From Escherichia coli (GTDB taxonomy: Bacteria; Pseudomonadota; Gammaproteobacteria; Enterobacterales; Enterobacteriaceae), in assembly GCF_002854065.1 (NCBI RefSeq), contig NZ_CP024147.1: a stretch of 64,000 nucleotides of DNA, one strand, 5' to 3'. Each line of letters opens with the position of its first letter. Position 1 is the stretch's first letter. The position numbers and the translations under genes were made by a program. Of the stretch, positions 36,021-36,123 are shown piece by piece. Below the pieces are notes generated by a model. It saw nothing but the letters and a program-made list of their open reading frames with translations, was not told the origin of the DNA and made no database searches.

Positions 36021-36123
36021 TTGCCCGATGCGCAAGTTTATCGGGTCTATGGGGGCAATCGCAATTTATCGATTTTGCGAGCTCTTGTAGGCCGGATAAG
36101 GCGTTTACGCCGCATCCGGCAAG
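36021..36123. repeat. REP elements in the flgF–flgG intergenic gap
   Basis: Palindromic units TTGCCCGATGCGCAAGTTTATCGGG and GCCGGATAAGGCGTTTACGCCGCATCCGGC. Confidence 0.6.

Follow-up and report, generated by a model that had tools for sequence, protein, structure and literature searches.

The flgBCDEFGHIJ operon of E. coli raises a question at one of its junctions: why are flgF and flgG separated by a long spacer with repeated palindromes, and does this spacer help to set the amounts of rod and ring proteins? In the DNA analysed here (a stretch of 64,000 nucleotides, in the following called the window), the gap comprises 171 bp according to the ORF list and the sequence itself (flgF at 35239-35994, flgG at 36166-36948). 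RefSeq contains the queried stretch, with 100% identity, as E. coli DNA annotated flgF/flgG, and in K-12 MG1655 the gap is likewise 171 bp long, with a single base different in the spacer. A preliminary description of the locus had called most flg junctions tight or overlapping and the one between flgF and flgG long. This is borne out by the K-12 annotation, in which the other junctions within flgB-J range from a 1-nt overlap to 52 bp (B-C 3, C-D 11, D-E 24, E-F 19, G-H 52, H-I 11 and I-J -1 bp); further downstream, J-K measures 65 bp and K-L 11 bp.

The same description had placed two REP palindromes in the gap. We searched the whole window with a relaxed REP pattern that allows for a variable loop and obtained four matches, compared with 0.04 per shuffle; REP1 (36023-36050, plus strand) and REP2 (36087-36120, minus strand) both conform to it, and the boundaries originally given for the pair, 36021-36123, hold to the base and coincide with the outer ends of REP1 and REP2 (inverted repeat I2). 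Both units have the length (30-40 nt) and the imperfectly palindromic form of REP sequences, the arms of REP2 (36091-36104 and 36107-36120) being 86% complementary. The GTAG/CTAC foot that characterizes REPs (PMC3333891) is present as GTAGG in REP2; in REP1 it reads CTAT here, while the alleles of NT1F10 and E. albertii have CTAC. The element is extragenic, and REP2 is a high-copy repeat, found at no fewer than 159,464 places across 5,425 genomes and at 28 or more places in the median genome. Rfam gave only a sub-threshold match of REP2 to the REP-derived naRNA4 (41.8 bits, E=1.5e-5), so that no curated RNA family applies to the spacer. No gene for a TnpA_REP (RAYT) transposase adjoins the locus. 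The K-12 RefSeq table (NC_000913.3) has no repeat_region at flgF-flgG; since it has none at malE-malF either, the missing REP annotation is uninformative. Elsewhere in the window, a solitary REP-like unit, GCCTGATGCGGCGTAAACGCCTTATCAGGCCAAC, is located at 47364-47397 on the minus strand.

The locus has the following features (window coordinates, strand and, in brackets, the basis of the assignment):

35239-35994, plus strand: flgF coding sequence, proximal rod protein, stop codon TAA at 35992-35994 (ORF list, RefSeq annotation)
35995-36153, plus strand: Escherichia-specific insertion of about 159 nt (comparison with the 13-nt Citrobacter junction, TAA c acaggacatttt ATG, and with the gaps in 78 species)
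36001-36013, plus strand: left arm of an outer inverted repeat, GGATACATGACAA (repeat I3, 77% complementary; MFE folds)
36021-36050, plus strand: REP1, degenerate Y-type unit in forward orientation, TTGCCCGATGCGCAAGTTTATCGGGTCTAT (pattern scan, alignment to the Y REPs of other BIME-1 copies)
36051-36086, no strand assigned: L linker of 36 nt with the conserved core GCAATTTATYGAWTTTGC (full-length alignments; middle hairpin of the RNA fold)
36062-36074, minus strand: IHF-like core AATCGATAAATTG, one mismatch to WATCAANNNNTTR (consensus scan and homologous position)
36087-36123, minus strand: REP2, canonical Z-type unit in inverted orientation, GCCGGATGCGGCGTAAACGCCTTATCCGGCCTAC on the minus strand, GTAGG foot at 36087-36091 (inverted repeat I1, pattern scan)
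36138-36150, plus strand: right arm of the outer inverted repeat, TTGTCACTAATCC (repeat I3, folds)
36154-36165, plus strand: flgG translation-initiation region acaggacatttt, with AGGA at 36156-36159 (identical in Citrobacter species without the insert)
36166-36948, plus strand: flgG coding sequence, distal rod protein (ORF list, RefSeq annotation)

By comparison of sequences, the two REPs are recognizable as parts of one BIME-1 (RIP/RIB-type) element and not as independent units; the preliminary description was correct in seeing two REPs in the gap and overlooked the single composite element that they form with the sequence between them. A BIME-1 is defined as a y REP and a z1 REP in inverse orientation, present in single copy and joined by a long conserved linker L, which frequently has an IHF site (PMC3333891). 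Our assignment rests on the match of both architecture and end-to-end alignments to this definition. REP1 lies forward and REP2 inverted, so that the two face each other tail to tail across 36 nt; on the plus strand REP1 aligns with Y units, on the minus strand REP2 aligns with Z units, for which the label z1 (versus z2) would follow from the association with an L linker. The pair occurs once, with the long linker and no tandem repetition. We also considered a BIME-2 and discarded it, given that BIME-2 elements consist of tandem y/z2 pairs with short S linkers and that a single pair with a 36-nt linker is found instead. Positions 36018-36128 align over the full REP-L-REP length with three other copies at 73-81% identity, located in the fliC-fliA spacer, in the gldA-yijF spacer (other E. 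coli strains) and at 14072-14175 of the window. The alignments include a conserved linker core, GCAATTTATTGAATTTGC, and across the loci the linkers share GCAAT(T/A)TAT(C/T)GA(A/T)TTTGC.

Although similar over its full length to these three copies, the flgF-flgG element is set apart from them by its degenerate REP1, by an IHF mismatch at a different position and by its location. Compared with the Y REPs of the other copies, a T:A pair in the stem of REP1 is replaced by C:G, so that pairing is kept, and the foot reads CTAT, not CTAC. As to location, RIB elements are described where transcription units have their 3' end, whereas this one lies between cistrons of a single operon, flgB-J; the 3'-end position is the typical location and not a structural requirement of the BIME-1 family. 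The second BIME-1 of the window (14072-14175) has an exact Y REP, a degenerate Z REP and a perfect IHF consensus, AATCAATAAATTG, at 14114-14126 on the minus strand. It is found just after an 857-codon ORF, presumably opgH as judged from the K-12 gene order, and just ahead of a hairpin at about 14197-14220 that is terminator-like and has a T run, which is the typical 3'-end location of RIB elements. This copy also carries CCTGATAA and has no peak in the sigma-28 SELEX data discussed below. The fliC-fliA copy (L005:378-486, L007) closely resembles the one at flgF-flgG and likewise occupies a flagellar junction. In all three comparison copies, as at flgF-flgG, the Y REP lies towards the upstream gene.

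To trace the origin of the spacer, FlgG relatives were scanned in one genome per species, and the flgF-flgG gap was measured in 78 other Enterobacterales species. It amounts to only 8-39 bp in 73 of them, and the species lacking the insert have the same 'acaggac' Shine-Dalgarno region in front of flgG. In E. coli the 12 nt of Citrobacter, acaggacatttt, still precede the flgG ATG, and about 159 nt have been added behind the flgF stop. In E. albertii the gap is 153 bp and contains the same Y REP and linker, followed by a REP2 without its central 18 nt; presence of the element in this species implies that the insertion predates the split between E. coli and E. albertii. This form belongs to a third allele of 152-153 bp (L004:357-509, L015, L014:1348-1500), shared by E. 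albertii and a few genomes that bear the label E. coli, in which GTAGGTCG directly abuts CATCCGACAAG in REP2, and the Y REP and the linker are closer to the family consensus. When only the non-repeat flanks of the insertion were used as BLAST queries, they occurred at a median of one place per genome, which rules out that they are part of a larger mobile element.

An imperfect inverted repeat, 36001-36013 and 36138-36150, encloses the repeat element. It is kept, with changes in both arms, in the Box C-like allele described below (GATTGaTGACA and TGTCAgCAATC) as well as in E. albertii, and its arms pair in the MFE folds of both main E. coli alleles. The outer repeat could be an older hairpin or the trace of a target site.

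Within E. coli, the junction is polymorphic. The BIME-1 allele is present in 3,476 of 5,426 complete genomes (e.g. K-12, REL606 and CFT073), whereas 1,943, including O157:H7 and O26, have a spacer of 137 bp (L002:396-532, L003:396-532) with the same outer flanks and, between them, an unrelated GC-rich palindrome, CCCTCGCCCCTTTGGGGAGAGGGTTAGGGTGAGGGG. Together, the two alleles account for 5,419 genomes and divide them 64% to 36%. The first ~56 nt of the palindrome are themselves a dispersed repeat, present at 16 places in the median genome, which we take to be Box C-like because of its resemblance to Box C. The two alleles thus share the junction and its flanks and differ in everything between: the Box C-like one has neither REP nor L linker, its gap is shorter, and its RNA is not unusually stable (z = -1.2), unlike that of the BIME-1 allele.

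Palindromes are also found at this junction beyond Escherichia. Enterobacter sp. ENT03 (L023:1361-1500) has a palindromic element of ~127 nt flanked by TAA on either side, which we assume to be ERIC/IRU-like from its match to the ERIC1R and ERIC2 primer sequences. It shares with the E. coli element the junction and a strongly structured RNA (z = -4.4 for ENT03); repeat family and genus are different, and the insertion, at the TAA stop, is independent. Besides ENT03, two species have short flgF-flgG spacers containing hairpins. We noted, as further independent insertions, a perfect hairpin with a 12-bp stem in Enterobacteriaceae RIT691 (L042:1446-1500) and a 72-nt spacer in Rouxiella (L082:1429-1500). 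The idea that flgF-flgG is a unique insertion hot spot was tested by measuring the four neighbouring flg junctions in the same 78 species. It was weakened, as other junctions (flgE-F, flgG-H and flgH-I) have long spacers in some genera too: flgG-flgH reaches up to 222 nt (Rouxiella, Xenorhabdus, Yersinia) and flgH-flgI measures 145 nt in three Serratia species.

At the RNA level, the spacer is predicted to fold with -63.6 kcal/mol (z = -4.7), a value that none of 200 shuffles attained, into three hairpins (REP1, linker and REP2) inside an outer stem. Calculated on equal flanks, z is -3.7 for the BIME-1, -1.2 for the Box C-like and -4.4 for the ERIC-like spacer, and -6.4 for the malE-malF spacer used as control. 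Predicted accessibility of the flgG initiation region is 0.47-0.64 and similar across the alleles and the empty Citrobacter junction. Scans revealed neither a terminator-like GC-rich hairpin with U tract in 35995-36165 nor a sigma-70-like promoter in the gap. The flgBCDEFGHIJ genes are an FlhDC-dependent operon, continuous into flgKL (PMC4183435).

What, then, might the element do? The preliminary description had proposed that REPs inside the operon could set the stoichiometry of rod and ring genes. Its starting point, REPs in the long spacer of a co-transcribed operon, stands, but the stoichiometric role finds no support at this locus. A required role of this kind is made less likely by absence of the insert in 73 of the 78 relatives, its replacement by an unrelated repeat in 36% of E. 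coli and the loss of most of REP2 in E. albertii. Following the description, the spacer might be a functional mRNA module through which the two halves of the flg operon are expressed at different levels, a proposal that we consider possible, albeit doubtful. Either an endonuclease would cut in the AU-rich stretch 3' of REP2 and the hairpins would then block 3' exonucleases, stabilising the flgBCDEF mRNA, or the BIME would attenuate transcription into flgG-J. For the former there is a precedent in malEFG, where the malE-malF structure protects the upstream mRNA, together with the documented role of 3' protective structures (Dar & Sorek, PMC5927463); for the latter, BIME-associated attenuation is attributed to Espeli 2001 as cited in PMC12306157. 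Like flgF-flgG, malE-malF has REP hairpins in a spacer of ~150-170 nt within a polycistronic mRNA and a strongly negative z. The predicted RNA structure (z = -4.7) is similar to that of the control, even though the latter is more stable (-6.4 versus -3.7) on equal flanks. Retained pairing in the REP1 stem through a double change, conservation of the outer stem and the presence at this junction of structured repeats that are unrelated from one lineage to another are likewise consistent with selection for structure. At malE-malF, however, the documented differential decay matches subunit stoichiometry (PMC5927463), whereas the stoichiometry at flgF-flgG runs the other way: the basal body contains 5 copies of FlgF, 24 of FlgG and 26 each of FlgH and FlgI (PMC11673145). 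A stoichiometry-setting role, plausible as such, would thus fit poorly, since upstream protection or downstream attenuation favours flgB-F, yet less FlgF than FlgG, FlgH or FlgI is needed; on the other hand, FlgE, too, is encoded upstream of the element. The module further has to be reconciled with the absence of the insert from most relatives, with a Box C-like allele that folds no better than shuffles and with long spacers at other flg junctions in other genera, which fit tolerance. Published transcript data point in the same direction: in the differential-decay supplements of Dar & Sorek (a possibly incomplete set; PMC5927463), flgF/flgG appear only in the list of analysed operons (supplementary file 2), the Term-seq supplements of Adams (again possibly incomplete) assign no 3' end to flgF or flgG, the RepRanger supplements have no entry for the locus, and we found no report of differential decay across the flgF-flgG spacer. 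The negatives from the decay and Term-seq literature are weak, as flagellar genes may be poorly expressed in the strains used. A further candidate function, down-regulation of translation, was rejected: it requires a REP no more than 15 nt from the stop codon (Liang, Rudd and Deutscher 2015, as cited in PMC12306157), and between the flgF stop and REP1 there are 26-28 nt. A comparable arrangement is known from Pseudomonas putida, where two REPs lengthen the otherwise tight fliG-fliH junction of a flagellar cluster, which measures less than 15 bp in other pseudomonads (bioRxiv 10.1101/2021.08.29.457346); REP family, genus and junction differ from those at flgF-flgG, and the authors of that study infer an active promoter there.

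Two other proposals were weighed. At the level of DNA, IHF might bind the L linker, as has been reported for RIB/RIP elements, and bend the DNA within the operon, which would organise the nucleoid or insulate supercoils while flg is heavily transcribed. This is suggested by the BIME-1 architecture, whose L linker frequently has an IHF site (PMC3333891), and by the putative IHF core on the minus strand, AATCGATAAATTG, which differs from WATCAANNNNTTR by one mismatch and has a perfect counterpart at the homologous position of the copy at 14072-14175. Taken by itself, the consensus is near background (76 matches in the window versus 54 expected); as this count is not significant, the motif is informative only through its homologous position. 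Moreover, two further positions of the core deviate from the family consensus, the linker is wholly absent from the Box C-like allele and thus from 36% of genomes, and RIBs are described, to go by a title cited in PMC12306157, at 3' ends of transcription units and not inside operons, so that IHF binding at this linker seems unlikely to be what the element is for. Still far less credible is a sigma-28 (FliA) promoter in the spacer, which would drive late flgG-J transcription or, if read on the minus strand from within REP1, yield RNA antisense to flgF. It is prompted by genomic SELEX, where an in-vitro peak of sigma-28 RNA polymerase falls between flgF and flgG (1133868, intensity 6.7; PMC5493296). 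This old K-12 coordinate corresponds to about 36083 in the window, and REP1 contains the -10-like sequence CCCGATAA (7/8) on the minus strand at 36043-36050, the only good sigma-28 element there. The best matches of the gap to the consensus TAAAGTTT-N11-GCCGATAA are nevertheless 10/16 on the plus and 11/16 on the minus strand, which is background level in a window with 783 sites scoring at least 10 and 144 scoring at least 11, and in-vivo FliA ChIP-seq has sites at flgMN and flgKL with none between (PMC4183435). Based on the consensus scores and the ChIP table, we rejected a promoter of this type.

We therefore favour the reading that the spacer harbours one BIME-1 copy that is most likely a tolerated relic of REP/BIME spread, behaving as a structured spacer, and probably dispensable for rod and ring stoichiometry. 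Tolerance is indicated by the absence of the insertion in most relatives, its exchangeability for an unrelated repeat, the decay of REP2 in E. albertii and similar expansions elsewhere. According to this scenario, a block of about 159 nt was inserted between the flgF stop and an unchanged flgG ribosome-binding site in an ancestor of E. coli and E. albertii. It is transcribed within the FlhDC-dependent flgBCDEFGHIJ(KL) mRNA, where the transcript is predicted to form the three hairpins within the outer stem. As a consequence, the element would separate translation of flgF from that of flgG and might, for the flgB-F part upstream of it, present a modest barrier to 3'-to-5' exonucleases. It is probably not needed for setting rod and ring stoichiometry, and even a modest effect on mRNA decay is something we would entertain without expecting it. 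The compensated pairing in REP1, the outer stem in all Escherichia alleles and the unrelated palindromes at the junction could also reflect selection for a structured spacer. Taken further, the flgF-flgG junction would be selected for any structured RNA spacer and would have repeatedly recruited unrelated palindromic repeats: the E. coli/E. albertii ancestor would have gained BIME-1, O157/O26-type lineages a Box C-like repeat in its place, an Enterobacter an ERIC-like element and others simple hairpins. We judge this to be improbable; if true, the 64%/36% split would entail heritable differences in the ratio of hook/proximal-rod to distal-rod/ring mRNA.

The kind of element described here is already known, as it belongs to a long-catalogued repeat family of the best-studied bacterial genome, of which it is an unremarkable member; K-12 has 584 REPs by one count (PMC3333891) and 355 annotated REP elements by another (PMC4550694). 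As it stands, the finding is of small importance. What it clarifies is that the spacer contains a composite BIME-1 within an Escherichia-specific insertion, and that a third of E. coli genomes have an unrelated repeat at this junction instead. Both the split into alleles and the repeated occupation of the site agree with the notion that BIMEs give rise to intergenic polymorphism. Combined with the 'empty' 13-nt junction of Citrobacter, the allele swap amounts to a natural experiment on intra-operonic repeats in a well-measured system, the flagellar basal body.
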